A stretch of DNA of 64,000 nt, from contig JAGMCL010000119.1 of the NCBI GenBank assembly GCA_023129165.1, forward strand, positions 4,714 to 68,713, in the 5' to 3' direction. The DNA comes from a candidate division WOR-3 bacterium. Lineage in GTDB: Bacteria > Hydrothermota > UBA3073. This document shows, in pieces, positions 41,236-61,517 of the stretch (position 1 is the first letter of the stretch; each line of letters opens with the position of its first letter). A program made the translations under genes and the position numbers. The notes below the pieces were generated by a model. The model had not been told where the DNA came from and ran no database searches. It worked only from the letters and a program-made list of their open reading frames with translations.

Positions 41236-41436
41236 AAAACCTCCTTTCTTATACCTCGCATCAAATATAAAAAATATAATTATCGGGGTTGGGAAACCCC
41301 TCCTACATCGTTACTACAAATAAACATCTAATCGGGGTTGGGAAACCCCTCCTACATCGTTACGCAAAAAATACCTACTTCGTAGGGCAAGGCTTCAGCC
41401 TTGCGATTAAGCAAACCTGAAGGTTTGCCCTACATT

Positions 41437-43286: not shown

Positions 43287-44789
43287 TTACTTCTCCTCAA
43301 ACTTCTTCTCAATTTCCTTTTCAATTGCCTCTTCAATTACTGCAAACACTACCCTTCTGTTCTCTATACCAGATATTCCAGGTCCTGTCCTATCCGAAAG
43401 AAGCTCTTTCTCACCCAAACCAACTGTAATTATCTTATCCGGAGCTATACCATAACCTACCAATATGTCTCTTACAGCCTCTGCCCTTTTTATAGAAAGC
43501 CTTATATTTGCCTCCCCACTGCCTGCCTTATCACAGTGTCCCTCTATTGTCACAACCTTATCAGCATAGTATGTCTTTATAAGTCTCGCTGCCTCAGAGA
43601 CTTGTGCATATTCCTCTTTCGGTACCACAGAGTTTCCATAGACAAAGTGAATGTTTAAAAGGTGCAGAAGTTCGTCAGGGGTAATGTATGTTTTCAGGGA
43701 CGTCTCAAGGATACCCTTCAACTCCTCTATATCCATCTTAATATCAGTGATATCCATCATTATCTGCTCATGGTCACTGAGCAGTCTATCATACTGCTCA
43801 TCCTCAATAAGAACCTTGATTGGACCGGCATCCCTTGGCCTACCGAAACCAAATGAGAGACTGAGACGATGGTCTACCTCAGAACTCACCTCTTCTCCCC
43901 AATCCCTGTATGCATAATCAAGCTGGAATGCACCAACCTTTACACCTGCACCGTATGAAATATTCATTCCACTCTCGTCTGCATTGTTCCAATCATATCC
44001 ACCTGCATAGCCTGCACGCAGTGCAAGAACATCTACAACCCAGAGTTCTCCACCAAGGTTGTACCTCATGCCGCCATCAAGTGGATAGTTTATATCAACT
44101 GCTGTATTAAGTGCGAAAATGGAGAGATTCGGGAATTGCAGCGTGAATCCACTCTTCACATTCAGGGGCTGGTCAAATGCATCATTCATAAACTTAACCT
44201 GTGTGCCAAAATTCTGCATACATACACCAATACTGAATAACACATTGCCATTTGCAAAGGCTATAGGTGGAACGAGCAGACCGATATCTCCAGCAACTGC
44301 AGTAGCCGTATAACCAGCATAGTCGAAGTATAAAAACTTTCCATTCAACCCAAGTGCAAAATACTTATGGAATCTACCACTATATCCCAGGATACCCCCC
44401 ATGGAATAGGATTTTACTGTTCCCTCATAGACGCCATTAGTCATTTTCCGAATATCACCCTCATTGAAATACAGAATTCCCACACCAATCGTGCCCAGCC
44501 CAGATGGAAAACCCAAAGACAGAAATGTCTGATAGGTATCCATGAGATACTGATTGTGGCTGGTAGAGATACTTGGTCTATTTAAAAATGCAAGCGTTGC
44601 AGGGTTATACAATAGACCATTGACATCCCCGGTAAGACATGAAAATGCATCTCCCATCCCCATAGGTCTAGCACTTACCGGTATCTCAAACGGCGTAACC
44701 AGGCGAGTTCCGGCATCTTCACCCGGCGTGAATGAGAACGCGGTGAGCGGGATGATGAGGATGAGACCTGTCAAAAGCAACCACCTCAT
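43287..44789 (-). CDS. PorP/SprF(PorV)-like outer-membrane beta-barrel fused to C-terminal OmpA peptidoglycan-binding domain
   Basis: Signal peptide MRWLLLTGLILIIPLTAFS. PVSARPMGMGDAFSCLTGDVNGLLYNPATLAF matches the N-terminal motif of the PorP/SprF/PorV families. The C-terminus EGHCDKAGSGEANIRLSIKRAEAVRDILVGYGIAPDKIITVGLGEKEL...NRRVVF is OmpA-like. The gene lies directly downstream of the giant T9SS cargo gene. Confidence 0.6.
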   Translation of the reverse strand: MRWLLLTGLILIIPLTAFSFTPGEDAGTRLVTPFEIPVSARPMGMGDAFSCLTGDVNGLLYNPATLAFLNRPSISTSHNQYLMDTYQTFLSLGFPSGLGTIGVGILYFNEGDIRKMTNGVYEGTVKSYSMGGILGYSGRFHKYFALGLNGKFLYFDYAGYTATAVAGDIGLLVPPIAFANGNVLFSIGVCMQNFGTQVKFMNDAFDQPLNVKSGFTLQFPNLSIFALNTAVDINYPLDGGMRYNLGGELWVVDVLALRAGYAGGYDWNNADESGMNISYGAGVKVGAFQLDYAYRDWGEEVSSEVDHRLSLSFGFGRPRDAGPIKVLIEDEQYDRLLSDHEQIMMDITDIKMDIEELKGILETSLKTYITPDELLHLLNIHFVYGNSVVPKEEYAQVSEAARLIKTYYADKVVTIEGHCDKAGSGEANIRLSIKRAEAVRDILVGYGIAPDKIITVGLGEKELLSDRTGPGISGIENRRVVFAVIEEAIEKEIEKKFEEK

Positions 44790-44855
44790 AATTCCTCCTC
44801 CTTTATATCCCTGCCCCGCACTTATTTATAGGTGCAGGGCAGGAAATTCACAATG

Positions 44856-47800
44856 TTATCTAATAACCAGAATCTTATCCTTAAGAACCTTAACTTCGTC
44901 GTTTATCTTAGTACTCACAAGTATAACGTACATACCGGAAGCCACCTTCTTACCCTCGTCGTTATCCAGCTCCCATGTATATGTCCAGGTAGGCACATTA
45001 TCACCCTTGTACTTGGGTGTCTCCATTGCCACCTTATACCGTACAATCTCACCTGCGAGGTTAAAGATGGTGAGCCCGGGGTCTGCATCATCATCACCCT
45101 TACACCTTATCGTTACCTTGGTTCCAGTAACCGGGTTCTCATCGTATGTGAGCTCAGTCTCAGATGTTACGGTGAGTTTAACAACAGCCTCATATGAAGG
45201 CATTCCATCCTTCTCATCTCTCACCTCAAACATACCTGTAAAGACACCCTCCATTGTGAACTTAGGAATGTCCACAGACATAAGTACTCGTTCAGAACCA
45301 CCGATGCCAAGTGTGTCTACAACAGGATAGGTGAACTTGACCCTGTCTCTTGAAATTACCGTACCAGATACATCCTCAAGGTCAGTCAGCATAATGAGCT
45401 CAAGGTCTGTTAGAATGACGTTACCCAGGTTGAGAACACTGAAGTACTCCGAACCTGTTGTGCCTTCTCTACCAGTAACCCCAAGTGTGTCAACAGAGAG
45501 CGCGACTATCTCGTCGGGCAGCACGGTAACATTAAGGGTAAAGGAGTCGCTCACAACTTCATTCTTCTCGCCACCACTGTATTCAAGTACAACCCATCCA
45601 GTATATACACCTTCATTCTGGTCTTCAGGTATCGAAACAGTAAGCGCTCCAATTGTATAGCTTCCATATTCGACGTCATAATTCCTCGGGTCAAACTCTA
45701 CTGTAAAGTCTTCAAGTCCGTTCACCCTACTTGCTATACATGTCAGGTCTACATTACCAACACCAATCGGGTTCTTGATTACGAAGTGAGTTTCAGGTGT
45801 TGTGGTTCCTACATCACCAACAACATACATTGTATTCTCAACAAGGTTGCCCTCGTTGTCGGCAATATGGAAGTATGGTGATTCCGCCACCGTGAGGATT
45901 ACCCTCACTGTGTCAGAGACAGAACCACTTCCGTTTATGGCAGTAACAAGCCCTGAATATGTTGTGGCATAAGTTCCTACAGGTATATGTATAACCGCAT
46001 GTGCCGTGGTATATGTGCCGGATTCAAGCGAGGATATATTGTCAGGCTCGAAGTCAATGTTGTCTTTTGAGATGAACCTCGTACCGCCAGCGTTGAAGAG
46101 ATTGTCCGCAACAAAGTGGATACCATATAGTGTGGTGTTCCCAGGACCATCTGGATCCGGATTGTTGGCAAGGTCTGTGCTGTAAACAGTGAAGTCAGGT
46201 GTTGCCTTAGTAGAACCATGTTCGACATCACCTGCTATCTCAACCGAAGCCTCAGCAATGTCAAGGTCCTCGGTCTCGTTCACAACAAGTCTCACCAAAA
46301 TCCCGTCGTCAACACCTTCGTTGCCAAAGACCGTAATCCAGCCTTCGTATGTCCCAGCTGCTACATCTTCGGGTATTTCAACTGAGACCGGAGCATCCTC
46401 ACCGCCGCCAGAGACAATAAATCCTGGCAGATCAACCAATACATCCTCAGCAGGTATAACATTGTCTATCTTGGTGCCTCTGCCGTATGTTGATTCGACG
46501 TACTCGGCTACTCCACCCTTACCATCCTTTGCTGGACCACCAACAAAGACAAGGTCCTCTACCTTGTAAGACAGCTCATCGAGGTCTGCGTTTCCAAAGG
46601 GATCAGGATCAAAATTAGTTACCTCTGAATTGGGATTGATAATCCTGAACATCCCACCAAGAACCTCACCAATGTCTCCAGCTCCGATATCAAGAACATT
46701 CCTTACGATATCAAGGTCATATGAAGGATTAACGGTAAGCACAACCGTCTGAGTAACAAGCGGATGGCCATCATCGTCCTTCACAGTTATCGTAGCCTCG
46801 TAATCTCCCGTATATGTACCAGCTGGTACGAATACATTAATATTAATTGCATCACTCGTAGCACCAGGACCAAGTATGCTTATTTCAGTAGGATCGAAGG
46901 TCACATTAAGAACTGGTATGACATATGAGCCGTATACGAAGTTCGTAGAGGTGAATATAATATGGTCAAGTATATTGTTGCCTGTGTTGGTCACAGTGAA
47001 GCTGGTTGTTCCTACAAGTCCGTGATCCGTACTGAAGTCTGCAGGATCTGTCATTGTCAGACCCTCAACAGCCTCAACAGTTAGAACGACATCAAAGCTG
47101 TCACCCGTATCATCCTCCTCAGGTGATGTCACTGTTGCCGTTCCAGTGTATATACCCTCAATCTGACCCTCAGGTATGTTAACAGTGTAAGTAATCACAA
47201 CTGAACTACCTGAAGCAAGATTTGTGGGTGAACTTATCGCTGTTGGCACAATGTCAGCACCAGGACCTGTAAGATTACTCAATGTGTACGTTAGATTCGT
47301 AAGATCGGCATTCCCAAACATATCCGGGTCAATGTTCATCGCCTCGGAGTTCGGGTTGACGAGTAAGAACTCAGCCATTACGGTATTACCTGGTATCTCT
47401 ATAAGAGACATTGTATTACCCACGAGGTTCTGCTCGTTGTCAGATATATCAAGGTCATAGGAAGGATTGACGGTAATGATAATAGTAACCTCGTCAGAGA
47501 CAGAACCCTCACCGTTCTTCGCCGTTATCGTTCCCTTATATATACCTGTAAGGATTCCGAGAGGTATATCAACAGTAACTCCTATCTCATAAGTCTCTTC
47601 TGGTTCAATTTCGGCAATGTTCTCAGGTATAAATGTAATACCCTCTTTCGGAATTACATTATCAAATTCATCATAAAGGTTGGTTGAAGTAAAGTTAATT
47701 CCAGTAAGTTTAACATTGCCGGTGTTTGTTATATTAAACACTATATCACCAACGTTAGTGCCGTGGTCACCTGCTCCAGATATATCATCCTCATCTATGT

Positions 47801-50800
47801 CAATTCCTTCAACTGACCTTACAAATACCTCTACATAGAAGTAGTCAGATACTCCACCAACTCCATCCTCAATGGTTATGGTTCCTTTGTAGGTACCTGC
47901 GTAGATATCTACAGGAACATCGATTGAAACAAGCACATTCTCAGAACCACCATGAGCAAGGGTCGTTGGCGAGTAAACAGTGATAGCAGAAGCTGGGATA
48001 ATATCATCCAACTTCTCTCCTTCAGTAACCGCACCTCTCTTGGGTGGTGTCTGGAATACCAGATCTGTTGCATCCCAACCGAGGTCAGTAAGGTCTGTGT
48101 TGCCGAATGGGTCAGGGTCAGCGTTCTGAGCTTCATTTGCAGGGTTGATTAATCTGAAGTAACCCTCAAGTGTACCACCAATCTCGGCATTTGCAAAGCT
48201 CATCTTATTGCCAACAAGATCCTGCTCATTGTCAGATATATCAAGGTCATATGAGGGTTCGACAGTCACACTCATACCCAGGACATCAGAAGGATATCCA
48301 TCGTCGTCGATGACCCTCAGCATACCAGTATAGGTGCCAGCATACTGACCAGGATTGATATCAACCGTGGGTAAAACCGTAGCTGACTGACCAACATCCA
48401 ACAGATCAATCACAGCCTGGTCAACAGGAGTAGGACCGAAGAAACCGGTAGCAGCTATCTTAATGTTGCTTGCCAGTATCTTGTGTCCAAGTCCGTCTTC
48501 AAGATCTGTAACCGTGAAGCCGAGGTTGTCCAGTGGGACGTTGCCCGGCCCATCAGGATCAGGGTTGTAGCTTATATCAGGATTGACAACCGTGAAGTCT
48601 GTTAGTGTTACCGTTGTCCCATGGTCACCTGTGCCATCAGTAATATCCTCAACTATATCAACATCCTCATAACCACCGACCTGTACAATGAGGGTGAATT
48701 CATCTGATACACCGGCATCAAGGTCTTCGACTGTAACAGTGCCGACATATGCGCCGGAAATGGCATCCAGAGGTATATCAACCTCTACCACACCAACTGC
48801 AGTCTCACCAAGGAGAAGTGCGTCAGTGCCGGTAATGGTTATATCAGAAGCCATTATCCAGTAGAATGCGTTCTCGGTATGTGCAAGGTCAGTTACTGTG
48901 TAGACAATATTACCGAGGTCATCGTTACCGAATGGGTCAGCGTCAACGTTCTGATCAGTGCTTGCCGGGTTGTAGATATCGAAGTCTCCTGTAACTATTA
49001 CGGTGGGAAGGCCATTCAATACCATATCGTTTCCGAGAACATCGCCGGCATTATTAGCAATATCAATATCATAGTAGGATGGAATCTCAACCCTCACCGA
49101 AATCACATCAGAAGGATAACCGAATTCTCCCATAACTCCCATAGCTCCAATATAGGTTCCTGCATGCTGACCTGCCTCTACAAGTACCCATGGCTCAACC
49201 CATGCAGCCTCACCAAGAGGTAAGTAGGCAATAAATGCCTCGGCAATGGGTGTCGGGTCAGGATAATCGGTCGTCCTCACATAGAGCTTATCGGTATCAA
49301 TCATATGACCATCACCATCATATAGTGCAGACCCTGTGAAGCTTAGATTCCACAGGTCACCATTGGATGGTCCATCCGGGTCAGGATTGTAGCTGTCATC
49401 CGGGTTGACTACCGTAAACTGGTCAAGTGTAATAAGGTCATCGAGTCCTGCAAGTCCACCATAACCATAGGTCTCATCCTCTACAATGTCAACGTCAAGC
49501 TCTGCGCCAACAATCACAACGAGTATAAACTCATCCGTTACACCAGATACATCCGTAGCAGTAACGGTTCCAACATATGTACCTTCCTCCTGACCAACTG
49601 GCACGGATACCAAAATCGTTCCTGTTTCAGCTTCGCCAGATATCAGGCTGGATGGTGCTGAGACCATTACATCGTATGCATATATTATTGCGATTGGATT
49701 AGTCTGGTGCTGCAGGTCTGTGACCGTGTAAGTTATATCAACGAGGTCATCGTTACCGATTGGGTCTGGGTCGACGTTCTGAACCTCGCTGTTCGGGTTA
49801 TAGATATCGAAATCACCTGAGAGCAGGTCTCCAGCGTTACCATCAAGGGTGAGATAGTTCCCTATTAAATTGCCACCGTTGTTAGCAATATCGATGTCAT
49901 AGGATGAAAGCACATCGATCGATACCACTATGGCGTCAGTAGGATAACCATCATCGTCAATCACCCTGATGAATCCTACATAGGTACCTGCATGCTGCCC
50001 AGCCTGTACATCAACCGCTGGCTGGACATCCGCTGCATCACCTATGAGAAGTACATCGAGCACAGCATCGTTTGTAGGTGCCCAGAAATCGGTAACGTAG
50101 AGATAGATGTCATCAGGTGGTATAAAGTAGTCACCATTTTCAAGTCCTGATGTATTGAAGAGCAGGTTATAGAGGTCTGTATTGCCCGTGTTCTCAACCT
50201 CGAAGCTTGAAAGGTTGACCCATGAATCATGGTCACCAGAGCCAGATGTAACGGACTCAACTATGTTTACATCCTCCTCAGGACCAACGTTCACAAGCAA
50301 CTCAAACTCATCAGATACACCACCAACCACGTCAAACACCGTAATCGTTCCAGTATATACACCCTCCTCCTGAGCAGCAGGGATGTTGACCACAACAGGT
50401 ACTATCTCATTCCCACCTGTGAGAAGGGTTGCAGAACATGTGATAACCACTGAGGATGCTGGTATCGAATACAGTGGATTGTCCACATGCAGAAGATCCG
50501 TAGACGTGGCATCAACATTCAAAAGATCGGCATTACCAAAGGCATCAGGGTCAACGTTCATCGCCTCAGAATTCGGGTTGACTACAAGATAGTTGCCTGT
50601 GGGTGATGAACCAGGAAGACCGCCAATCGCCATGGTGTTGCCCACAAGATCCTGCTCATTGTCAGAAACATCAATATCATAGGAAGGATTGACAGTAAGT
50701 ACAACCGTCTGCGTAGCAATCGGATAACCATCATCATCCTTTGCAGTGATTGTTCCTGTGTAATCTCCCTCATGTGTGCCAAGAGGTACAAATACATTAA

Positions 50801-53800
50801 TATATATCGTACCACTCGTGGCACCAGGACCCAGCGTGCTGATCTCAGTGGGCTCAAACGTCACATTGTAATCGTTTATGACGTAGTCACCGTTCACAAA
50901 GTTCGTAGAAGTGAATATAATGTGGTCAAGCCAATCATTACCTATGTTCGTTACTGTGAAGTTGGTTGTCCCTACAAGACCATGGTCAGTATCGAAGTCC
51001 GCAGGATCGGTCATCGTAATACCCTCTACAGGCCCAACAATCACCTTAACATCGAAGAAGTCTCCTGTACCATCCTCACCAGGTGATGTAACAGTCACGG
51101 TTCCCTCGTATAGACCCTCAATCTGACCTAAAGGTATGTCTACCTGATAGAGGAGTGCAACTGCATCACCAGTAGCAAGGGTCATAGGCGATGGTGTTAT
51201 AGACAGATTCACAGTAGTAATATCAGGACCAGGTCCTGTAAGATCGGTCATCGTGTAGGTAAGATTCGTCAAATCAGCGTTACCATACATATCCGGGTCA
51301 ACGTTCATCCCATCTGTATTCGGGTTGATAAGTAAGAACAGCCCACTGTCTGAATTGCCAGGAAGCTCATTCAAGAAGAGTATGTTGGCTACAAGATTCT
51401 GCTCGTTATCAGAGATGTCAATATCATAGGACGGAAGCACCTCGAGTGATACTGTAATAGCATCAGAGGGAACTCCATCGTCATCAATCACCCTGATGAA
51501 CCCTGCGTAAGTGCCTGCATGCTGTCCTGCTGGCACATTAACAGCTGGCTGGGCATCTGCTGTCTCACCTATGAGAAGCACGTCGAGCACGGCATCATTC
51601 GCAGGTGCCCAGAAGTCGGTAACGTAGAGATAGATGTCATCAGGTGAAATGAAGTAATCACCGTTGATGAGTCCTGATGTATTGAACTGCAGGTTGTAGA
51701 GGTCTGCATTACCTGTATTCTCAATCTGGAAGACAGATAGGTCAACCATTATATTATGGTTGCCTGAACCGGAGGTAAGGGTCTCAACTATGTTAATATC
51801 CTCCTCTGGTCCAACCTGCACCAGCAACTCGAACTCATCGGATACACCAGCAACCACGTCAAACACCGTAATCGTACCAGCATATACACCCTCTTCCTGA
51901 CCAGCAGGTATGTTGACCACAATAGGCACTTCCTCACTTCCACCTGTGAGCAGGGTTGTAGAATATGTAACTACTACTTGGGTTGCCGATATCGAATACA
52001 GCGGATTATCTATATGCTGGAGATCCGTTGATGTAACACTAATGTTTAAAAGGTCGGTATTACCAAAGGCATCCGGGTCAACGTTCATCGCCTCAGAGTT
52101 CGGGTTGATCACAAGATAGTTACCAGTGGGTGATGAACCAGGAAGACCTGAAAGCGCCATGGCATTACCTATAAGGTTCTGCTCATTGTCAGAAATATCA
52201 ATGTCATATGAAGGTCCAACAGTAATGCTTATGGGTAAAGTTTCTAATGGATAACCATCATCGTCCTTGACTGTCACCGTCCCTGTATAGGTTGCGGCAT
52301 ATGTGCCCAGAGGGACTGCTACATAAACCTCTACATCCTCTGATGCAGTCATCGCCAGCATACCTATTGATGTGGGAACAAATGTGATATTGGAAGATGC
52401 TATGTATCTTCCTGCACCATCATCAAGATCCGTTACCTCAAAAACGATGTTGTCAAGGTCTGCATTTCCATCATTGGTCACTGTAAACGCATCTATTGCG
52501 GTTACGCCGTGGTCAACCGTCTTGTCAAGGGTTCCACTCAAGACAATAGACTCGGCAGGACCAACAATGACCATCAATGTGAAGTAGTCCATAGAGCCAT
52601 CGGCTGATGTCACTACCACCGAACCTGTGTATATACCCATCTCCTGTCCACCAGGTATTGCCACACTCAAAACCACGTTAGCAGATGCACCAGAGGCAAG
52701 GGTTGTAGGTGGACTGATAAAACTAATCTGGGTAGAAGGTATGGTATAGCTGTCGTATGTGAGGTCCGATGCAACATAGGCAAACGGACCACTCAAATCA
52801 AGGTCAGTGTTACCAAACGGGTCAGGGTCGACGTTCATCCCATCCGTGTTCGGGTTTACCAGCAGGAAGATACCACTCTTTACAGTACCGGTATCTCCAG
52901 CAAGTATCATCATATTAGCCAGAAGCATCTGTTGATTGTCAGCTATATCGAGGTCATAGTCTGGCTTCACATACAGGCTGCACAGTATCGTAGCAGATGG
53001 GAATGCATCGTCATCCTTCACCGTAATCTCACCTGTATACCATCCTGTGTATTGACCTGCCGGTGCAATAATCTTCTTGGCAACATCCACAGTGTCTTCC
53101 ATAAGTAGTTCTGTTATCTGTGGTGGCTCGAAGATTATATTCGAAGGATGGATCAGATGACCTGCATAATCCTGTAAGCTTGTTGATTCAAATATAATAC
53201 CATAGAGGTCTGCATTACCGGTGTTAATGACAGAGAAGGTATCTGTCACAAATGCACCGTGGTCAACGCTGTCAACCTCTACAGTTGGAACAACTGCAAT
53301 GCCCTCGGTAGGCCCAACATTCAAAATAAAGTCAAACCAGTCCATTAACTGATAACTCTTGGGTTCGGTTGGTATATAGTGTGCGCCTGAGAATGCACCT
53401 GTGGCACTTATGAGAATCTTGCCTGAGAAGTCATCATCGGGTTTGGTTGTCACAGGGTTGAGAGCAGTGTAGTTGGTTGCGTATGTTCCAAATGGCGTCC
53501 CTACAGGGACTACGACCTCAACCGAATACGATGCCTCCCACTGACCCATTAATAGGATATCAGGACCGAATACATATGCCTTTACGCTGTCCTGAGGATT
53601 ATACATCCTGAACAGCCAGAGGCTGTCTGGCAACGGAAGGAGGGTATCAAGGTCAGGGTCATAAATACCAACTGAATCAGCGTCCTCTGTAGTAGGTCCG
53701 TCCCATGGGTCTGCTGCTAAGTTTTGCATCCAGTCAGGGTTCACAACAGAGAAGTGACCCCATACTGTTTCACCTGGCATGGCATTCAGGGTCATATAGT

Positions 53801-56800
53801 TGTCCGCATCTATGTTCATCTCACCCTGTGCAATGTCTATATCAGGTGCAGTAACTGTGAATTTAAAGAGGAATGCATCGAATGCCTCCTGTTCAGTGGG
53901 TGGTATTGGAGTAGAATTGGCCGTTAAGGTGCCAGAATATCCCGAACCTGTCGTAATAAAGGCATCTCCACCATCATACAGAGTATTAGCATCAACGTCC
54001 TGCCACAAATACACCCAGCCATAGTACTCACCAGGCGGCAGACAGTATGGATGGACCCATACCTGGACAGAATCCCACTCACCAAGGTCGAGCGAATCTA
54101 TGAGTATCTTTGTACCATATGTACCCATATGGTTGAACCTGATTCTCCATTCAACAGAGTCTGCAGTAACAAAACCAGGACCTGAGTATGAATCAAACTG
54201 ATATGTTACAAAGACACTATCCAGAACCGTATTACCCTGCCAGTCTGGGTTACCATAGAGATCAAGGGTATCCCACTCATCCGGATAGGAGTCACTCGGT
54301 GTACCACCAGGACCCCATGGTGCTCTTGCAAACCTCGGAAGTGCGGGAAGTCCGTTTATATCATTAATGTAATTAAAGTCAGCATCTGGTTCTGTATTGG
54401 GATTCGACTTAAAGAACACACCCATAAAGCTATCTACAGGTGATGCAGATAGGGCTATTGCCATATGCATCTCGTTGTCGAATGCGCCCATTGAATCCGG
54501 GTCTGAGGAACCGACACCATCGGGAAGAAGGTCGTTGTTCAGTATATCAACCTCCCATACAGGGTCAACCTCAACCTGGAATACGATTGTATCTATCGGA
54601 TTGTTAAAGAAGGGAGCACCCTGCCAGAGAACCAGTCTACCCTCGTAAATACCAGGTATCTGTCCCCATGGTATATGCACCCTCACCCAGACCTCATCAT
54701 CTAAATCACCTATGGGTAATCCGTTGTTTGGTGGACCACCGGTAGATGTGATTATAGCAGCAGGTGCTGGGAAAGGCCCTATCTTAACACCCTCGTCAAC
54801 TCCCCAGATATCAACAGAATCAAATGGAATAATTAAAGTGTCTGGCCATAGACCTACAGGCGGTACCGTATATGTGGCTACATCAAATGCCCAGTCAAGG
54901 TCAGTACACGTCGCATAAATATCATCAAGGTTAACAGGACCAGTATTCAATATTACAAACATACCTGTTCCTGAATCTCCAGGTACAGGGTCGATAAATA
55001 AGGTATCACGTCCAGAACGCAGTGTGGTATCGGCGCCGGCCGGGAAGGGAAGTGTGAACGGTTTAATCTCGTAAGAGTCGTCGCCAAAAGGTACGGAAGC
55101 CTCACTCGGTGGGTCTAAGACACCATCGCCTAATCTTGGCTCCATTGGATTCGTATCAACAGCATCGTTCTCGCCTCCATGGTCAGAGTCAATGTCGCAG
55201 GGATTGGTCTCACCAGTACCACTATTGTCACCAGGATATATGTATGGATTGCCGGAGTAATCCCAGGAACCACTCTGGTTTACATCCTCACCAGGAGCGC
55301 CACCATCAACCAATCCATCACCATCCGTGTCATTGAATGCAGGGTCGGTCATAGAAGCAATATCCGTATCAGAGCTATGTGTAAATCCACCATTGGCACC
55401 ATTGCCTGGGTTGGCATTCCACACACCCCAGAGTTGGGGTGGAAGTGTGCCTGAAACCGGAGGAGCGGCAGGTCTTATTCCCACATGCCACTCCAGACCG
55501 TCTGAGAGAACATCACCATCACCATCCCACCATAGGACGGGTGTCTGTGCCCAGTTTACCTCCCAGGAATCCACAAGCCCATCCTCATCTGTGTCGATGT
55601 CGTTGGGGTCTGTCTCGGTCCAGCCCGGGTCGGTTGGATCCCAGACACCCCAGGTGCCAGGAGCGGGAAATCCTCCATCACCCGCTATCATACCATCCCC
55701 AAATACACCCACGGGAGTAACGATTATTGGAAGGTCCTCGCCGGTGGGACCGCCATCGGGAAGCCCATCATTGTCGGTATCCCCATCATAGGGGTTGGTG
55801 AAGGTAGCGGGAGCTCCAGCGAATGCCGCATCCCGGTCCCATGTAAAGACGCCTGCATTTGTTCCAAAAATTGGAGGAGCCCAAGGAATACCAGTTACCA
55901 CCATCACCTCTGTCCCGTCCTGGATAATATCAAAATCTGAGTCTACAAGTCTGGGGTCAGTGGTGTAGAAGTTACCACTAACACCGTAAGGTGTTGGGAA
56001 GATTGGGGGGCTAGCATTCTCCTCGCCGATCACAAAGGGCGTGGGCAAGGGTCCATACATATCATAACCTGGGGGTGCCAGTGCGCCGATGCAATAGGCA
56101 TCCTTCATTCCATCGTCGTCATAGTCCAGATCAAGCCACGCCGGAACGCCATCGAAACCTAATGTAGGACCGAAGAACGATAGCTCCACCCAGTCGGGCA
56201 GCCCGTCACCATCGGAATCCTCTGGAACCGTGGGGTCTGTCTCTTCGATACCAACTGGACCAGATGGTGGGTCCTCTAGAATCCCATTATTTGCAACACC
56301 TGTTGGTCCAAGTCCATTGTCCTCACCCGTCGATGGATAGGTGCCGGGTGCGTAGGCGATACCAAATAGTGTGCCATCACCATCAATGAGCCAGTCATTG
56401 TCTGAATCAACATCGAGGGCGTTGATGATCCCATCGCCCTCGGAATCTACATTGCCCTCATTGCCCACGTTCTCGGTTCTGCCATCGCCATCTGTATCAA
56501 CGAGAAGAGCATTGGTTCCGTACACAGTTCTCTCGTCATCATTCCATCCATCCGCATCCGAATCCGTGTCAAGGGCATTGGTAGTCCCATCACCATCTGG
56601 CTGGTCGATAGTAGCCGTTTCCCAGCCATCATAACCATCATTTACATTATCACCATCGGTGTCTATCGTGAGAGGTTCTGTCTCGCCAGCATCTACATCG
56701 CTACTGAAGTTCCAGTCCTCTCCGACACCATCAAATAGAAAGTCGTTGTCTATATCGTTATCCTTTGCACGTGCATAAGTGTCTTCGTCGGCATTGTCCG

Positions 56801-59800
56801 CTCCGACACCTATGGTATTGTCATCCCTGCCGTCTATATCTGTATCACTTCCAAGGGCGTATGTGTAAACGGGGATGAGACCATTCGCATCCTCAACATT
56901 ATCTGTCCAGCCATCATTGTCTGAATCGGTATCGAGGGCGTTCGTAGTGACATCGGCATCTGAGTCGAGAATGACCGTCTCCCATCCATCATAACCGTCG
57001 TTTACACCTTCAAGGTCTGTATCTATGGCATTGGGGTCTGTCTCTGTGGCAGCCCATAAGCCATCCTGATTTATGTCCTCAACCCAACCATTAAATAAGT
57101 TGTCATTATCCTCATCGGGCTCGAACGGGTTGGTGGTTGTTGCTCCGCCGTCCGCGTCGACAACGATGACGCCAACATTGGTCGCAAAACAACCCAGGAG
57201 TGCGATTGCGTCGGGGAAGTATTCTGTGGCAATAGGAACGCCACCAGCATATACGGTTGAGAGACCGTGTTCTGTTCCGCCCTGCACGATGTCGAAGTCT
57301 GTATCGATTAATGTCCCCTCTAAGCCCTGAGCGTATGCCATTCCATTACCTGTAAATCCGGTTATGGGGTCGTATTCACCAAACTCGCCGGGCTGCTCGC
57401 CTGCAGTATACAATCCATCTCCATTACCACCAAAGCCAACACCAGCTGCCCAGGGTGCATCGCCCCATCCATCCAGGAATCCGTCGTCTTCTGTGTCAGC
57501 GTCATTGAATAGTGTTCCAAGACAGATTTCGTGACCGTCCTTCAGCCCGTCGCCGTCGGTATCTGCGACAAGCGGCGTTCCGTCGACACAGTCCTTAATC
57601 CAGTCGTAATCCGAATCAGGATTGCGAGGATCAGTCTCATCTGTTGGATCACCCGCTGCTATGCTATCAACCTTACCATCATGGTCGGCGTCTTCATTCC
57701 CGTCGATACCACAGCCTGCAAATATTATATTACTTGAGTCTCCATCTGTATCTCTCATCAAGGGGTCTGTCCAGTGTGAGATAGAACCGGCACCAAGCGG
57801 AGACACAGCAGCCCTTTCGATATTGTCATCAAGACCATCACCATCTGTGTCTGGATTAGTCGGATCTGTCCTCTTTGGAGCCCAATTAACAATAGCACCA
57901 ACAGGAAGGACCTCGTCACCATCATACAGCCCGTCACCGTCTGTATCCTTAACTCCCACAGCAGACCCTTCAAGATCCTCCATCCCGTCGAGAAGCCGGT
58001 CACCATCTGTATCAAGTGGATTGGTGAACTGATGCATATATCCCTTACAGGGATTGAATCCATCCTGTCCACCAGATTTCCAGAATCCATCTATCTCATC
58101 CTGATCAGGCTCATTATCCGGGTCTGAACTGAGTAGAACTATATGGTCAGAATTTGCAGTAGAGTAAAATGTTGGGAATAATGTGTTGTTTGTTGCATCC
58201 CACATATAGTCAAATTGTGTAGAGGCAATTGGTATACGGAGAGTATATGTCAGGACAGAGTTAACCATAGGCTCTGCACCAGGGTTTGTTGAACCAAATA
58301 TACCAAGATGGAGTGGGTGTTTGGTTGCCCTGTACTCCTGATAATCCGTAGCCCCATCACCATCTGAGTCAAGGTCAAGGGCATTCATAACTCCATCTGC
58401 ATCAGGGTCACCATAACCCTCTACATAGTCCCAGAAGATAATAAACATTGAATCCGGGCGGGGGTCCCATCTATCACTCAGTGCCGAATCCGGGTATGTT
58501 ACACCGTCTACAAGCGAGTCATTATCCGTATCGATAAGCCTCGGGTTGGTAGCTCGGAAATCAAAACTCAGGTTAATTGCCTTTGCCTTTTTAAGACTGC
58601 CTGAACTCTGTCGAGGAATTGTGTCCTTAACTCCTGGGCTTATGAATGCACATTTAATCCAACCCATGGTGAGTTCACCAGGGATATCACCATCTGTAGT
58701 ATCGAATCCATAATCGCTATTCATATCTGTAAATCCATCGAGTAGCCCATCACCATCTGTATCAGGATTAAGTGGGTCGGATGAGAACCAGGCACCTATC
58801 CAATTGCCTAAAACATCCCTGTAACCAGCAGCTGGATTCACTGCGTTTGGAACCGGGCCCAAATCTATAAAATGGGGGAACCACTCATCGCCATCCCACA
58901 GACCGTCTCCGTCGGTATCGGGATTGTACGGGTCCGTCTCCGAGCCGCCGTTTGCCTTGGTCGTCAACTCGTAGTTATCGGGAAGCCCGTCGCCGTCGGA
59001 ATCAAGCCAACCATCCGTGGATATGGGGTCGAGCGGGTCTTCCATACCGTAACCATCGTGGTCGGCTCCATACACCTCAACATAATTTATGCCATTTAAG
59101 GGAGGTGAATATCCAACGCCCAATACCCAGGTTGGATAGTCCTCGACCAGTCCCTCATAGATGGGATAAGTTACTAAGTCGTTCGCTGTGAAGGAATCGC
59201 CATCTGTATTTTTACTGAGGGGGTTTGTGCCGTAGGAGAGTTCGGCACCGTCGTTGATACCATCGCCATCTGTATCAATAAGAGCGGGGTTAGTCCTCTC
59301 GAAATTGCCTGCACCTGAACCATTGTTCAAATCGAGGTCATTACCCGCCTCAAATCCATCGGAGAGACCATCTCCATCGGTATCAAAAAGTATTGAACTC
59401 GTCCCAAAGATGGACTCATTGGGAGTAGTCCCATCAGCATAAGTCCAGCCCGGGTTGTATGAGCCGTCGAATAGTCCATCATTGTCAGAATCTATATCCC
59501 TGATGTCGGGAATACCATCACTATCTGTATCCTGAATGATAGTGGGTGAACCCTCCGTGGCATCCAAAAGTCCGTCGCCGTCGGAATCGAGTGAGAGAGG
59601 ATTCGCACCCACTGCGAGCTCTGCTGCATCCCCGAAACCGTCGCCGTCGGTATCCACGAGGGTTGGGTCGCACCTCTGGAAAGTGGCGGGAGTTGCCGAC
59701 CCATCGGTCAAATCGAGGTCGTTACCTGCCTCCCAACCGTCGGTGAGACCATCACCATCGGTATCCGAGAGCCTCCAGTCAGAGGCAAATGCACTTCCAA

Positions 59801-61076
59801 TACCGAGGGCTGCCTGCATCGCCGCTGAACACTCGTTCGGTAATGTGCCATCGGCGTATGTCCAGCCGGGGTTGTAGTTGCCGTCAAATAGTCCGTCGTT
59901 GTCCGAATCAAGGTCCCTTGCATCGGGCATATCATCGCCGTCTGTATCCGTGGGCGTGCCGGAGATATACATATTCCAGCTCGCATCCCACACGAGTACG
60001 GGGGAACCGGGGAGTGCCTCCACGGAATCGACTATACCATCGCCGTCCGTGTCGGGCGTATTAGGATTCAGCCTGTGCTTGAATTCAAGTTCATCTGCGA
60101 GACCATCGCCGTCCCCATCGGTATATCCGTATGGGTCAGTAAAAAATACAAACTCCTCCGTTCCGTCAGCCAGGCCGTCTCCATCGGAATCCATATTCAG
60201 AAATCGAGGTACTCCACCGAAGCCGGGGGTGTTGTCCTCTATCCCCGTGGTATATGTTACACCATCAAGAAGTCCATCGTTATCTGAATCGAGGTCGAGC
60301 GGACTGTACATACCATCGCCGTCGGGGTCATCCGGGGCAATAGTCAAGTCGCCCGCCAGATTCCACTCAATATCGTCCGTGAGACCATCGCCGTCGGAAT
60401 CTGTGTTAAGTGGACTGGTTCCATAAGCAATCTCAAGGAAATCACCTATACCATCAACATCAGAATCTGCCATATTCGGATTGGTTAGATACGTATGAAC
60501 CTCGTTGCCGTCATTAATACCATCACCATCGGTGTCAGCATTATATGGGTCGGTTCCTACATCACCAACCTCATATCTGTACGTTCCACCAAATTGATTA
60601 AAACTCAGCCAGCTTCCTCCTGGCTGCGATGGATCCCCTACCCAGGCAAACTGTCCATCCAGTATTCCATCATTGTCTGAATCAAGGTCAAGTGTGTTTG
60701 GAACACCATCACCATCTGCATCCTGAGGAAGACCAGTTACTACAGGGTCAATAGGGGAAGGTAACCAGGTGTGGACACCCTTATATTCTGCCCCGTCTAT
60801 TATCCCATCACCATCCGTATCAAAGCACTGGGGATCTGTCTCCCCGAGATGGGGCTCGAAAACACCATTTTTATTAGCATCTTCAAGAGAATCAGGAACC
60901 CCATCAGCATCAAAATCTGCATTAGGCATCGGAGCAACAGTCCAGATACCATGCATCATATCAATGTGGTCTGGTAGTCCGTTCTGGTTTCTATCCGGGG
61001 GAGTATAAATTGCCCCAAGGGGCAGTGCAACCATTGCCCCAATCAATAATACGAGAGGGAATATAATTCCTCTCAT
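44856..61076 (-). CDS. giant (~5400 aa) T9SS-secreted repeat adhesin-like protein
   Basis: Start set at MRGIIFPLVLLIGAMVA, with a GGAGGT RBS 6 nt upstream. The ORF track extends 43 codons further. The ~1700-aa N-terminal region is full of DTDGDG/DSDNDG calcium-binding thrombospondin-type-3-like motifs. It is followed by at least nine tandem modules of ~250 aa, each starting SYD[IL]DISDNEQ.LVGN...NPNSEAMNVDPD.FGN.DL. The C-terminus ...LTIFNLAGEIVRYKV...GMYVILVSTKINDEVKVLKDKILVIR is a T9SS CTD. Confidence 0.7.
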   Translation of the reverse strand: MRGIIFPLVLLIGAMVALPLGAIYTPPDRNQNGLPDHIDMMHGIWTVAPMPNADFDADGVPDSLEDANKNGVFEPHLGETDPQCFDTDGDGIIDGAEYKGVHTWLPSPIDPVVTGLPQDADGDGVPNTLDLDSDNDGILDGQFAWVGDPSQPGGSWLSFNQFGGTYRYEVGDVGTDPYNADTDGDGINDGNEVHTYLTNPNMADSDVDGIGDFLEIAYGTSPLNTDSDGDGLTDDIEWNLAGDLTIAPDDPDGDGMYSPLDLDSDNDGLLDGVTYTTGIEDNTPGFGGVPRFLNMDSDGDGLADGTEEFVFFTDPYGYTDGDGDGLADELEFKHRLNPNTPDTDGDGIVDSVEALPGSPVLVWDASWNMYISGTPTDTDGDDMPDARDLDSDNDGLFDGNYNPGWTYADGTLPNECSAAMQAALGIGSAFASDWRLSDTDGDGLTDGWEAGNDLDLTDGSATPATFQRCDPTLVDTDGDGFGDAAELAVGANPLSLDSDGDGLLDATEGSPTIIQDTDSDGIPDIRDIDSDNDGLFDGSYNPGWTYADGTTPNESIFGTSSILFDTDGDGLSDGFEAGNDLDLNNGSGAGNFERTNPALIDTDGDGINDGAELSYGTNPLSKNTDGDSFTANDLVTYPIYEGLVEDYPTWVLGVGYSPPLNGINYVEVYGADHDGYGMEDPLDPISTDGWLDSDGDGLPDNYELTTKANGGSETDPYNPDTDGDGLWDGDEWFPHFIDLGPVPNAVNPAAGYRDVLGNWIGAWFSSDPLNPDTDGDGLLDGFTDMNSDYGFDTTDGDIPGELTMGWIKCAFISPGVKDTIPRQSSGSLKKAKAINLSFDFRATNPRLIDTDNDSLVDGVTYPDSALSDRWDPRPDSMFIIFWDYVEGYGDPDADGVMNALDLDSDGDGATDYQEYRATKHPLHLGIFGSTNPGAEPMVNSVLTYTLRIPIASTQFDYMWDATNNTLFPTFYSTANSDHIVLLSSDPDNEPDQDEIDGFWKSGGQDGFNPCKGYMHQFTNPLDTDGDRLLDGMEDLEGSAVGVKDTDGDGLYDGDEVLPVGAIVNWAPKRTDPTNPDTDGDGLDDNIERAAVSPLGAGSISHWTDPLMRDTDGDSSNIIFAGCGIDGNEDADHDGKVDSIAAGDPTDETDPRNPDSDYDWIKDCVDGTPLVADTDGDGLKDGHEICLGTLFNDADTEDDGFLDGWGDAPWAAGVGFGGNGDGLYTAGEQPGEFGEYDPITGFTGNGMAYAQGLEGTLIDTDFDIVQGGTEHGLSTVYAGGVPIATEYFPDAIALLGCFATNVGVIVVDADGGATTTNPFEPDEDNDNLFNGWVEDINQDGLWAATETDPNAIDTDLEGVNDGYDGWETVILDSDADVTTNALDTDSDNDGWTDNVEDANGLIPVYTYALGSDTDIDGRDDNTIGVGADNADEDTYARAKDNDIDNDFLFDGVGEDWNFSSDVDAGETEPLTIDTDGDNVNDGYDGWETATIDQPDGDGTTNALDTDSDADGWNDDERTVYGTNALLVDTDGDGRTENVGNEGNVDSEGDGIINALDVDSDNDWLIDGDGTLFGIAYAPGTYPSTGEDNGLGPTGVANNGILEDPPSGPVGIEETDPTVPEDSDGDGLPDWVELSFFGPTLGFDGVPAWLDLDYDDDGMKDAYCIGALAPPGYDMYGPLPTPFVIGEENASPPIFPTPYGVSGNFYTTDPRLVDSDFDIIQDGTEVMVVTGIPWAPPIFGTNAGVFTWDRDAAFAGAPATFTNPYDGDTDNDGLPDGGPTGEDLPIIVTPVGVFGDGMIAGDGGFPAPGTWGVWDPTDPGWTETDPNDIDTDEDGLVDSWEVNWAQTPVLWWDGDGDVLSDGLEWHVGIRPAAPPVSGTLPPQLWGVWNANPGNGANGGFTHSSDTDIASMTDPAFNDTDGDGLVDGGAPGEDVNQSGSWDYSGNPYIYPGDNSGTGETNPCDIDSDHGGENDAVDTNPMEPRLGDGVLDPPSEASVPFGDDSYEIKPFTLPFPAGADTTLRSGRDTLFIDPVPGDSGTGMFVILNTGPVNLDDIYATCTDLDWAFDVATYTVPPVGLWPDTLIIPFDSVDIWGVDEGVKIGPFPAPAAIITSTGGPPNNGLPIGDLDDEVWVRVHIPWGQIPGIYEGRLVLWQGAPFFNNPIDTIVFQVEVDPVWEVDILNNDLLPDGVGSSDPDSMGAFDNEMHMAIALSASPVDSFMGVFFKSNPNTEPDADFNYINDINGLPALPRFARAPWGPGGTPSDSYPDEWDTLDLYGNPDWQGNTVLDSVFVTYQFDSYSGPGFVTADSVEWRIRFNHMGTYGTKILIDSLDLGEWDSVQVWVHPYCLPPGEYYGWVYLWQDVDANTLYDGGDAFITTGSGYSGTLTANSTPIPPTEQEAFDAFLFKFTVTAPDIDIAQGEMNIDADNYMTLNAMPGETVWGHFSVVNPDWMQNLAADPWDGPTTEDADSVGIYDPDLDTLLPLPDSLWLFRMYNPQDSVKAYVFGPDILLMGQWEASYSVEVVVPVGTPFGTYATNYTALNPVTTKPDDDFSGKILISATGAFSGAHYIPTEPKSYQLMDWFDFILNVGPTEGIAVVPTVEVDSVDHGAFVTDTFSVINTGNADLYGIIFESTSLQDYAGHLIHPSNIIFEPPQITELLMEDTVDVAKKIIAPAGQYTGWYTGEITVKDDDAFPSATILCSLYVKPDYDLDIADNQQMLLANMMILAGDTGTVKSGIFLLVNPNTDGMNVDPDPFGNTDLDLSGPFAYVASDLTYDSYTIPSTQISFISPPTTLASGASANVVLSVAIPGGQEMGIYTGSVVVTSADGSMDYFTLMVIVGPAESIVLSGTLDKTVDHGVTAIDAFTVTNDGNADLDNIVFEVTDLDDGAGRYIASSNITFVPTSIGMLAMTASEDVEVYVAVPLGTYAATYTGTVTVKDDDGYPLETLPISITVGPSYDIDISDNEQNLIGNAMALSGLPGSSPTGNYLVINPNSEAMNVDPDAFGNTDLLNISVTSTDLQHIDNPLYSISATQVVVTYSTTLLTGGSEEVPIVVNIPAGQEEGVYAGTITVFDVVAGVSDEFELLVQVGPEEDINIVETLTSGSGNHNIMVDLSVFQIENTGNADLYNLQFNTSGLINGDYFISPDDIYLYVTDFWAPANDAVLDVLLIGETADAQPAVNVPAGQHAGTYAGFIRVIDDDGVPSDAITVSLEVLPSYDIDISDNEQNLVANILFLNELPGNSDSGLFLLINPNTDGMNVDPDMYGNADLTNLTYTMTDLTGPGPDITTVNLSITPSPMTLATGDAVALLYQVDIPLGQIEGLYEGTVTVTSPGEDGTGDFFDVKVIVGPVEGITMTDPADFDTDHGLVGTTNFTVTNIGNDWLDHIIFTSTNFVNGDYVINDYNVTFEPTEISTLGPGATSGTIYINVFVPLGTHEGDYTGTITAKDDDGYPIATQTVVLTVNPSYDIDVSDNEQDLVGNTMAIGGLPGSSPTGNYLVVNPNSEAMNVDPDAFGNADLLNVDATSTDLLHVDNPLYSIPASSVVITCSATLLTGGNEIVPVVVNIPAAQEEGVYTGTITVFDVVGGVSDEFELLVNVGPEEDVNIVESVTSGSGDHDSWVNLSSFEVENTGNTDLYNLLFNTSGLENGDYFIPPDDIYLYVTDFWAPTNDAVLDVLLIGDAADVQPAVDVQAGQHAGTYVGFIRVIDDDGYPTDAIVVSIDVLSSYDIDIANNGGNLIGNYLTLDGNAGDLLSGDFDIYNPNSEVQNVDPDPIGNDDLVDITYTVTDLQHQTNPIAIIYAYDVMVSAPSSLISGEAETGTILVSVPVGQEEGTYVGTVTATDVSGVTDEFILVVIVGAELDVDIVEDETYGYGGLAGLDDLITLDQFTVVNPDDSYNPDPDGPSNGDLWNLSFTGSALYDGDGHMIDTDKLYVRTTDYPDPTPIAEAFIAYLPLGEAAWVEPWVLVEAGQHAGTYIGAMGVMGEFGYPSDVISVRVEIPSYYDIDIANNAGDVLGNDMVLNGLPTVIVTGDFDIYNPASTDQNVDADPFGNDDLGNIVYTVTDLAHTENAFYWIMASDITITGTDALLLGETAVGVVEVDIPLDAISGAYVGTVTVEDLDAGVSDEFTLIVQVGGYEDVDIVEDITDGTGDHGTTVTLTDFTVVNPDISYNPDPDGPGNVPLDNLGFTVTDLEDGLGHKILASNIKIAATGFFGPTPVDQAVIDLLDVGQSATVLPTVDINPGQYAGTYTGMLRVIDDDGYPSDVLGMSVTVEPSYDLDISDNEQDLVGNKMSFANAEIGGTLEGYFRLINPANEAQNADPDPFGNTDLTDLGWDATDLVFQTPPKRGAVTEGEKLDDIIPASAITVYSPTTLAHGGSENVLVSIDVPVDIYAGTYKGTITIEDGVGGVSDYFYVEVFVRSVEGIDIDEDDISGAGDHGTNVGDIVFNITNTGNVKLTGINFTSTNLYDEFDNVIPKEGITFIPENIAEIEPEETYEIGVTVDIPLGILTGIYKGTITAKNGEGSVSDEVTIIITVNPSYDLDISDNEQNLVGNTMSLIEIPGNTVMAEFLLVNPNSEAMNIDPDMFGNADLTNLTYTLSNLTGPGADIVPTAISSPTNLASGSSVVITYTVNIPEGQIEGIYTGTATVTSPEEDDTGDSFDVVLTVEAVEGLTMTDPADFSTDHGLVGTTSFTVTNTGNNILDHIIFTSTNFVYGSYVIPVLNVTFDPTEISILGPGATSDAININVFVPAGTYTGDYEATITVKDDDGHPLVTQTVVLTVNPSYDLDIVRNVLDIGAGDIGEVLGGMFRIINPNSEVTNFDPDPFGNADLDELSYKVEDLVFVGGPAKDGKGGVAEYVESTYGRGTKIDNVIPAEDVLVDLPGFIVSGGGEDAPVSVEIPEDVAAGTYEGWITVFGNEGVDDGILVRLVVNETEDLDIAEASVEIAGDVEHGSTKATPDFTVYSTDLANNPDPDGPGNTTLYGIHFVADNLFNAGGTRFISKDNIDFEPDNISSLESGTYTTAHAVIHIPVGTYATTYSGLVTAINGSGSVSDTVRVILTVAESPYFHIADNEGNLVENTMYVVGDVGTTTPETHFVIKNPIGVGNVDLTCIASRVNGLEDFTVEFDPRNYDVEYGSYTIGALTVSIPEDQNEGVYTGWVVLEYSGGEKNEVVSDSFTLNVTVLPDEIVALSVDTLGVTGREGTTGSEYFSVLNLGNVILTDLELIMLTDLEDVSGTVISRDRVKFTYPVVDTLGIGGSERVLMSVDIPKFTMEGVFTGMFEVRDEKDGMPSYEAVVKLTVTSETELTYDENPVTGTKVTIRCKGDDDADPGLTIFNLAGEIVRYKVAMETPKYKGDNVPTWTYTWELDNDEGKKVASGMYVILVSTKINDEVKVLKDKILVIR

Positions 61077-61517
61077 CTTCTTACCTCCAACCTTTTCCAA
61101 CATACCTACCTCCTTTCTTTCGCGTTTAATTTTAAATATTACTCTTGTTCTCCATACATTTAATATTCTCTGAAAAGATATGGGACTTAAACCATCATTC
61201 AACATATTCCCCCCTTATTGCTGCAATATAGAAATAATAAAAATCCATATACACATATATTCTCACATATGCGGTGAGCATCTTAATAATTATGTCTACT
61301 TTTGCTACCGTCAAAAAAATTACTTGCACGTATAAATATAATATCAAATATTTTATGATTTGTCAAGAAAAAAGTATAATTTTTATAAAAAGTTAAAATT
61401 TAGTACAAATACAATACTGCAAACGCTTTTTGTGTAATATATCATAAATTCCAATACCTTTTTATCTCAAAAACCCTTAAAATCTTACAATTTTAGAGGG
61501 TAAGTGCGAGGTAATAC

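Follow-up and report, generated by a model that had tools for sequence, protein, structure and literature searches.

A giant surface protein and a PorV/PorQ-family barrel fused to an OmpA-like domain: a probable two-gene surface-anchoring module of WOR-3/Hydrothermota

How does a bacterium outside the Bacteroidota keep a giant protein fixed to its surface? The retention of type IX secretion system (T9SS) cargo on the surface is understood only for Bacteroidota, where the cargo is linked by a sortase to anionic lipopolysaccharide (A-LPS) or is held non-covalently by PorP-like barrels. The question is raised by a 64-kb stretch of DNA from a candidate division WOR-3 bacterium, called the window below, whose minus strand carries all the genes of interest: a giant surface-protein gene and, directly behind it, a gene encoding a PorV/PorQ-family beta-barrel fused to an OmpA-like domain. 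An earlier note on this DNA had described a giant of about 5400 aa followed 66 nt later by a 500-aa protein, and these figures proved accurate, the open reading frame (ORF) having 5,449 codons and the spacer being exactly 66 nt (Table 1). The same note considered the two proteins an SprB-SprF-like pair with a peptidoglycan anchor. As set out below, they probably form a conserved two-gene surface-anchoring module of WOR-3/Hydrothermota, representing a way of fixing a fibre that is not yet described for the T9SS.

The fusion protein and its paired giant

An NCBI entry with the name 'OmpA family protein [candidate division WOR-3 bacterium]' has the same sequence as the 500-aa protein. The protein starts with a signal peptide and contains both MGMGDAF and YNPATLAF, the motifs behind the PorP/SprF/PorV signature that had been claimed for it. 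The PorV side of this signature stands, as residues 34-315 span the whole PorV/PorQ family model NF033709 and score 147.3 bits (cutoff 90), and all 21 of 21 full-length homologues match this model too. The PorP/SprF side does not, as neither PF11751 nor TIGR03519 matches the protein at E<=0.1 in Pfam or NCBIfam, and PorP/SprF is not among the families listed as matching the 21 homologues. The equivalog models of PorV (NF033710, 66.4 bits against a cutoff of 250) and PorQ (NF033711, 81.7 bits against 220) are both missed; judged from these scores, the barrel is a member of the PorV/PorQ family and an orthologue of neither PorV nor PorQ. PorE was also considered and rejected, since its model (NF052230), covering TPR, beta-propeller, CRD and OmpA parts, gives 30.5 bits against a cutoff of 600, with the OmpA part alone aligning.

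The structure prediction that the earlier note had proposed was made with AlphaFold2 (AF2) on the alignment of the 21 full-length homologues, and it returned an N-terminal plug bearing the NPA motif, a barrel of 14 strands, an ill-defined linker and an alpha/beta OmpA-like domain. The mean predicted local distance difference test (pLDDT) score is 73.5, with values of 80-90 in the barrel. The closest solved structure to the modelled barrel is PorV, followed by FadL and TodX as the next-best folds.

Regarding the C-terminal part, the OmpA-like domain announced earlier is clearly present, with 60 bits to PF00691 against a cutoff of 27.2 (E=2.9e-16, residues 382-470). The GHxD...NxxLSxxRA and NRRV motifs are retained, and D420, R435, N428, L431, S432, A436 and the NRRV at 477-480 are invariant in 21 sequences, aligning with the corresponding residues of OprF and Pal. 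In OmpA-like domains, the Asp and Arg contact the stem peptide of peptidoglycan, and in 14-strand barrels of the FadL type the last strand ends in the periplasm, so a domain placed after it can reach the cell wall. Thus, the conserved residues and the predicted topology suggest that the OmpA domain of the fusion would lie in the periplasm and bind peptidoglycan.

The giant ends in a C-terminal domain (CTD) of about 100 residues with the pattern NPVTG...TI(M/L)N(M/L)A(A/G)E(I/V)V...W.L.N..G..VA(S/P)G(L/M)Y(I/V)V...K(I/L)L(V/I)(V/I)(R/K). Giant-type CTDs are homologous to bona fide type A CTDs encoded in the same genomes (hhalign probability 95.8%, E=7e-9, 82 columns) and yet are a separate subclass, the two groups being parted by more than 80 bits with reciprocal hidden Markov models (HMMs). 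The differences are found at TI(M/L)N(M/L)A(A/G)E(I/V)V, which stands in place of (V/I)YDxxGRxV, at G(L/M)Y(I/V)V in place of G(I/V)YF, and in a longer last hairpin. The subclass HMM gives 112-140 bits on the full-length CTDs encoded upstream of fusion genes, including two loci outside its training set (L086, 126 bits; L002, 112 bits), and 56 bits on a 50-residue CTD fragment in L010, compared with 4-26 bits on ordinary type A CTDs from these genomes, while the ordinary-CTD HMM behaves oppositely. A Por_Secre_tail match of any kind is seen in 6 of the 13 orthologue CTDs (best E 0.0026), TIGR04183 does not match the CTD of the giant, and a sequence search of the PDB with the CTD profile returned weak matches only, to FlgD (E=0.011) and to the C-terminus of PorZ (E=0.26). 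A type B CTD (PF13585 CHU_C / TIGR04131) was rejected, as the best CHU_C match among the 13 orthologues has E=0.066 and the window CTD gives E=0.11 (13 bits). The T9SS CTD proposed earlier is thus a domain with homology to type A CTDs that stays below the type A thresholds and is not of type B.

These results also bear on the strict reading as an SprB-SprF pair, in which a PorP/SprF-family barrel with a fused OmpA domain would serve an adhesin with a type B CTD. [quoted passage not shown] Nevertheless, this reading is highly improbable for the window, considering the missing PF11751/TIGR03519 match, the assignment of all 21 homologues to the PorV/PorQ family, and a CTD that aligns to type A CTDs and reaches CHU_C only at the E-value given above. 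As the barrel matches a non-PorP family, which the earlier note itself had named as refuting its finding, the label fails and the functional analogy survives. Moreover, P0033 combines another barrel family with another CTD type, indicating that the OmpA fusion arose independently in both barrel families.

The pairing itself was followed in a genome scan with one genome per species, which gave 14 loci with a full-length relative at 39-76% identity, nearly all labelled WOR-3 or Hydrothermota; a further locus, L086, was added through look-up. In the scan, the fusion gene occurs once per genome. In all 13 related loci having upstream DNA, a huge ORF on the same strand directly precedes the fusion gene, one of these being complete (3,091 aa) and others ending at contig ends after more than 3,308 and more than 2,560 aa. 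Thus, the pairing of giant and barrel is not due to chance. All the upstream giants possess the module stalk of the window giant, whereas their heads vary, as in the L005 orthologue, which has YVTN-like repeats and no TSP3 motifs; because the heads differ, conservation alongside the barrel gene concerns the stalk and above all the CTD. The strictly conserved synteny and the private CTD subclass lend support to the earlier idea of a partner that is specific for its cargo and anchored to peptidoglycan. At one locus, L003:425-4934 from a MAG, the giant (425-1879 + 1883-3235) and the fusion gene (3335-4279 + 4242-4934) are each split into two frames, through either assembly error or decay of the pair.

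This conserved adjacency can be set against the view of the 500-aa protein as a staple of the envelope in general or a channel for small molecules, OmpA-like in action but with a FadL-like barrel, and with no functional link to the giant, next to which it would lie through operon history. Such a view is improbable, although a barrel followed by an OmpA domain is the classic OmpA/OprF layout, FadL and TodX are the next-best structural matches, and the layout recurs in 94 of the top 150 representatives of the profile search described below, so that it could be housekeeping. The adjacency is kept in 13/13 loci across 39-78% identity and appears again in Gemmatimonadota, and a functional link is suggested by the CTD subclass that goes with the barrel. 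In addition, the barrel lies above the curated PorV/PorQ cutoff and matches PorV better in structure than FadL.

Proposed anchoring mechanism and its alternatives

The locus fits the published logic of T9SS anchoring with other parts, and a wall-fixed fibre with a retained CTD is therefore proposed. The giant, with its variable head, its stalk of about 20 immunoglobulin (Ig)-like domains and its private CTD, would be exported by the Sec pathway and would then use the type IX system to cross the outer membrane. Its CTD would escape cleavage, and the PorV/PorQ-family barrel whose gene lies 66 nt downstream would be dedicated to capturing and holding it. The C-terminus of this barrel would be periplasmic, with a linker of about 60 residues leading to the OmpA-like domain, which would bind peptidoglycan non-covalently, so a single polypeptide would do the job that PorP and PorE share in Bacteroidota. 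With the OmpA domain bound to peptidoglycan, the anchor of the fibre would be immobile and load-bearing. What the data themselves establish are the identities of the domains, the pairing of the genes and the private CTD subclass. That the barrel holds the uncleaved CTD while the complex is fixed to the wall through the OmpA domain is a reading whose chances we judge to be even.

Several points weigh against it. The CTD of the giant is under the Pfam thresholds (18.5 bits for both Por_Secre_tail, PF18962, and FlgD_ig, with cutoffs of 27), and the likeness among the CTDs of the giants is partly simple orthology. Binding between CTD and barrel is something that we infer from the synteny and the coupled CTD subclass. 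In the AF2 model of the fusion protein, pLDDT falls below 50 for residues 324-346, and the linker and the relative placement of the domains are of low confidence. Furthermore, no T9SS core gene is found within the 64-kb window, whole genomes not having been searched for them. Finally, no stand-alone WOR-3 PorV/PorQ is found among the named homologue matches, about a quarter of the proteins being named, or among the best 80 loci of the scan, in which whole genomes were not covered; the fusion may thus be the only PorV-family protein of the lineage, serving all its cargo.

This last point leads to the main rival, which is unlikely but the strongest of the alternatives, namely that the type IX system of WOR-3 has in the fusion its general PorV, a wall-tethered version to which the translocon passes all type A cargo. 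The position of the fusion gene would mirror the adjacency of porU and porV in Bacteroidota instead of reflecting an exclusive pairing. It is the sole PorV-family gene within the window and all flanks examined, it is present in one copy per genome in the scan, and it heads an array of five type A cargo genes. However, a barrel stapled to peptidoglycan could not shuttle cargo laterally, as is proposed for PorV (PMC7463736), the protein is far under the PorV equivalog cutoff (66 vs 250) and scores slightly better as PorQ (82 vs 220), and the adjoining giant has a private CTD subclass strictly coupled to the fusion gene. The absence of a paralogue also rests on scans short of whole genomes. A mixed model, with one stable partner and transient handling of other cargo, is possible.

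The lack of T9SS core genes in the window would also suit an autonomous display module, independent of the T9SS, in which the CTD docks onto its barrel without SprA/Sov. Pairs of a huge CTD protein and a PorV/Q-like barrel in Elusimicrobia and Ca. Eisenbacteria, described below, would agree with it as well. We give this version little chance, since a barrel of 14 strands with a plug in it cannot be the conduit for a 5,400-residue protein, and since the six canonical type A cargo proteins of the same window lead one to expect a T9SS.

For the wider distribution, 1.84 billion cluster representatives were searched exhaustively with a profile, which gave 1,816 proteins at E<=1e-30. Among the best 150 representatives (50%-identity), 94 have this type of barrel followed by one to three OmpA domains, with linkers of 20-430 residues between barrel and OmpA part and an AMIN domain in one case; barrel-OmpA fusions (P0140-P0282) are thus widespread in metagenomes. 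In L087 (10001-11860), from a metagenome-assembled genome (MAG) of Gemmatimonadota, a barrel-AMIN-OmpA gene lies 34 nt after the gene of a 1,356-aa BNR-repeat CTD protein, and in L088 (1861-3714), a contig from a JGI metagenome, a large ORF is overlapped at its end by the gene of a barrel followed by two OmpA domains. The upstream CTDs of these two loci slightly favour the giant-type over the ordinary HMM (26 vs 18 and 23 vs 16 bits), with YNIAAEEV replacing the YDxxGR motif in one of them. The nearest stand-alone relatives are barrels of about 310 aa with 33-35% identity, their named members coming from Ca. Eisenbacteria; at L085:3109-10933, such a barrel comes after a gene that is broken up by frameshifts and encodes TSP3 repeats and a CTD, and so the pair also exists without an OmpA domain. 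In the flavobacterial and Gemmatimonadaceae loci L020-L080, the match is confined to the linker and OmpA part.

PorV/Q-like barrels with other tails were also noticed. TPR-like C-terminal extensions of about 170-280 aa occur in Elusimicrobia, a group that to our knowledge is not known for a T9SS, and in an unclassified MAG, and an Ig/fn3-like tail occurs in a barrel from Calditrichaceae. The tailed barrels are located at L015:~9900-11257, L016:~10000-11266, L018:~9890-11266, L019:9860-11683 and L022:5526-6788. In L015, L018 and L019, the barrel is immediately preceded by a huge protein (1,500 to >3,299 aa) with a CTD-like domain at its end.

A broader and more doubtful extension would make the pair an example of a third T9SS sorting and anchoring route, beside those of type A with PorV-PorU and A-LPS and of type B with PorP-like barrels. 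A distinct CTD subclass would here be retained and held by a dedicated PorV/PorQ-family barrel with its own periplasmic tether, which would be OmpA in WOR-3 and Gemmatimonadota, TPR-like in Elusimicrobia and lacking in Eisenbacteria. The route would be widespread in uncultured phyla related to the Fibrobacterota-Chlorobiota-Bacteroidota (FCB) group and possibly older than the sortase route. This generalization is offered tentatively; if it were true, the value of the locus would be higher, and otherwise the locus is a testable extension for T9SS specialists.

Other features of the locus

The coordinates of the features are collected in Table 1. The head of the giant agrees with the Asp-rich, Ca-binding N-terminal region that had been described, its DxDxDGxxD motifs spanning residues 97-1959 and the Asp content over residues ~97-1970 being 13-20%. 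The model that it passes is the bacterial TSP3 model PF18884 (TSP3_bac), which matches 5 stretches with 36.7 bits (cutoff 25), instead of PF02412 (TSP_3), suggested earlier as a check, which does not match the giant. Identity with the myxobacterial gliding lipoprotein CglD (NF033765) was rejected, as its 247 bits, below the cutoff of 400, are spread across 10 repeat stretches, and the matches to MtsC and MtsD are also under their cutoffs; the resemblance to all three is due to the common TSP3 repeats. Alignments of the orthologues to the giant start at about residue 2067. Matches to Glyco_hydro_123_N, NPCBM_assoc, MG4 and Big_1 were likewise set aside, since no single stretch passes and they reflect merely beta-sandwich repeats.

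The stalk begins at residue 2747, and each of its modules opens with (P)SYD(I/L)D(I/V)xDNEQ. The YD[IL]D[IV]xDN motif is found at residues 2750, 3000, 3260, 3509, 3769, 4045, 4319, 4583 and 4829, giving nine clean modules at a spacing of 246-276 aa, flanked by degenerate copies, in line with the at least nine tandem modules of about 250 aa counted before. By alignment, the modules are 29-79% identical to the first one. One of them, modelled by AF2 from the alignment of ten internal copies, is a confident pair of Ig-like beta-sandwiches (pLDDT 90.6), for which Foldseek returned generic Ig-like neighbours only (the CfaB pilin, RbmA and ciliary ASH domains). The giant may act as an adhesin. GC content within the giant gene rises to 0.50-0.52 at 54001-60000, against about 0.40 elsewhere, coinciding with the Asp/Gly-rich TSP3 region, and the rise probably reflects amino-acid composition, not foreign origin.

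Regarding the start of the giant gene, AAGGAGG stands 5 nt before the ATG at 61103 (M35), which directly precedes the signal peptide, and this ATG is likely to be the true start. The public gene call uses the long form of 5,449 aa, whose first 34 codons (61104-61205, minus strand), coding for a basic segment in front of the signal peptide, are unlikely to be translated. The TTGACA-17-TATTAT promoter mentioned in the earlier note is present as a pattern, at 61366..61338 on the minus strand; however, the number of promoter-like sites in that region is at chance level (4 found against 3.4 expected after shuffling), so the match is a pattern and not evidence of function. Between the stop of the giant and the ribosome-binding site (RBS) of the barrel gene, a strong GC-rich hairpin without a T-tail is found in 10 of 13 loci (window, L001, L002, L005, L007, L008, L009, L011, L013 and L014; -26 to -46 kcal/mol or stronger), its sequence not being conserved, and a terminator scan gave none between the giant and fusion genes. 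By stabilising or attenuating the mRNA, this hairpin may set the ratio at which giant and barrel are expressed.

Right after the fusion gene, in the same direction, comes the array of five ordinary type A cargo genes, encoding proteins of 583, 1601, 1318, 1048 and 1180 aa. Together with one more, at 9634-10944 on the plus strand, six bona fide type A CTD proteins are encoded in the window, with domains including CARDB, lamin-tail, PPC and InhA-like MAM. None of the six genes adjoins a barrel gene. In particular, none of the five genes of the array has a barrel neighbour. A fragment of an IS200-like Y1 transposase (PF01797, residues 24-77 only) lies inside the array at 28086-28643 on the minus strand. 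Upstream of the giant are genes for endonuclease V and urocanase.

Table 1. Features of the giant-barrel locus, with positions in the 64-kb window.
Feature	Position	Strand	Remarks
Giant surface-protein ORF	44856..61205	-	5,449 codons, the longest ORF; likely start ATG 61103 (M35), giving 5,415 aa
Probable Sec signal peptide of giant, MLEKVGGKKMRGIIFPLVLLIGAMVALPLGA	61011..61103	-	Read off the translation
Asp/Gly-rich head of Ca-binding type, residues ~97-1970	55296..60917	-	34 DxDxDGxxD motifs, PF18884
Transition region of degenerate beta-sandwich modules, residues ~1971-2746	52968..55295	-	Weak beta-sandwich family matches
Stalk of ten ~250-275-aa modules (nine clean, one degenerate)	45159..52967	-	Two Ig-like beta-sandwiches each
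C-terminal sorting-type domain, private subclass, last ~100 aa	44859..45158	-	Subclass HMM, hhalign
GC-rich hairpin without T-tail, then RBS GGAGGAGG	44808..44845	-	In the 66-nt spacer; -26.6 kcal/mol
PorV/PorQ-family barrel and OmpA fusion gene	43287..44789	-	500 aa
N-terminal plug with NPA motif and 14-strand beta-barrel, residues ~28-318	43836..44708	-	
Predicted periplasmic linker, residues ~319-375	43665..43835	-	Conserved DITDxKMxxEExK...LKT motif; low model confidence
OmpA_C-like domain, predicted to bind peptidoglycan, residues ~376-486	43332..43664	-	D420 and R435 invariant
Array of five ordinary type A CTD cargo genes	24439..43188	-	Downstream of fusion gene; each reaches the gathering score of Por_Secre_tail and/or FlgD_ig
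Sigma-70-like promoter pattern TTGACA-17-TATTAT with TG	61338..61366	-	11/12 matches; upstream of giant gene

Comparison with known systems

While the barrel family, the wall-binding domain and the principle of a cargo-specific barrel anchor are known, their combination is new, as are the CTD subclass and the phylum. A literature search found no paper joining WOR-3 with the T9SS or type IX secretion, and a search on PorV, PorQ and OmpA led to work on PorE and PorP only. The locus suggests that other phyla may use wall-stapled PorV/PorQ-family barrels as dedicated anchors, each with a recognisable CTD subclass, and it offers a sequence rule by which retained and immobile cargo could be predicted. 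It would also provide a natural single-chain version of the PorP-PorE bridge and a compact pair, of a CTD of about 100 aa and a 500-aa barrel, for testing CTD-barrel recognition. In addition, database names that now read just 'OmpA family protein' or 'PorV/PorQ family protein' can be corrected.

Compared to OmpA and OprF, the fusion protein is similar in overall layout, predicted topology and the conserved peptidoglycan-binding Asp and Arg. However, its barrel is PorV-like, plugged and of 14 strands, unlike the 8-strand barrel of OmpA, and its gene is coupled to a specific cargo. P0033 is alike in being a T9SS partner barrel that is fused to OmpA and encoded near a CTD cargo, differing in barrel family (PF11751) and in the CTD type of that cargo (B).

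In the systems of Bacteroidota, PorV binds type A CTDs at the translocon and anchors PorU, and PorQ anchors PorZ (PMC7463736). The window barrel belongs to the same family as PorV and PorQ (NF033709), and in both of those pairs the barrel holds a surface protein non-covalently; the parallel in the window would be a hold through the uncleaved CTD. Unlike PorU and PorZ, the partner is a 5,400-aa fibre and not a sortase or an A-LPS carrier, and PorV and PorQ lack a peptidoglycan-binding domain, the fusion missing both of their equivalog cutoffs.

As in SprB-SprF from F. johnsoniae, where SprB needs SprF for secretion and attachment, the gene of a giant repetitive adhesin (putative in the window) is followed by the gene of a barrel. 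SprF, in contrast, is a PorP-family protein without a wall anchor, and SprB is mobile and carries a type B CTD, whereas a partner stapled to peptidoglycan predicts an immobile fibre.

PorP-like barrels hold type B cargo (PMC7463736; PMC9143113). PorE, PorP and PG1035 form a complex in which PorE links PorP to peptidoglycan, SprF binds SprB, and 6 of the 10 porP-like genes of F. johnsoniae adjoin porE-like genes; it has been proposed that non-mobile cargo is anchored to the wall through PorP-PorE and that the mobile SprB is not (PMC9143113). The window pair resembles PorP-PorE-PG1035 of P. gingivalis and the F. johnsoniae clusters of porP-like, porE-like and type B genes in having a CTD surface protein that would be held by a 14-strand barrel of the FadL family with an OmpA_C-like link to the wall. 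As in the porP-like clusters of F. johnsoniae, the genes of cargo and barrel are adjacent, a trait common to PorP and the window pair but not specific to PorP. Unlike PorP-PorE, the window pair is encoded in WOR-3 and not in Bacteroidota, its cargo ends in a type A-like CTD subclass instead of a type B CTD, and its barrel, of the PorV/PorQ family, bears the OmpA domain fused to itself and not on a separate TPR/beta-propeller lipoprotein.

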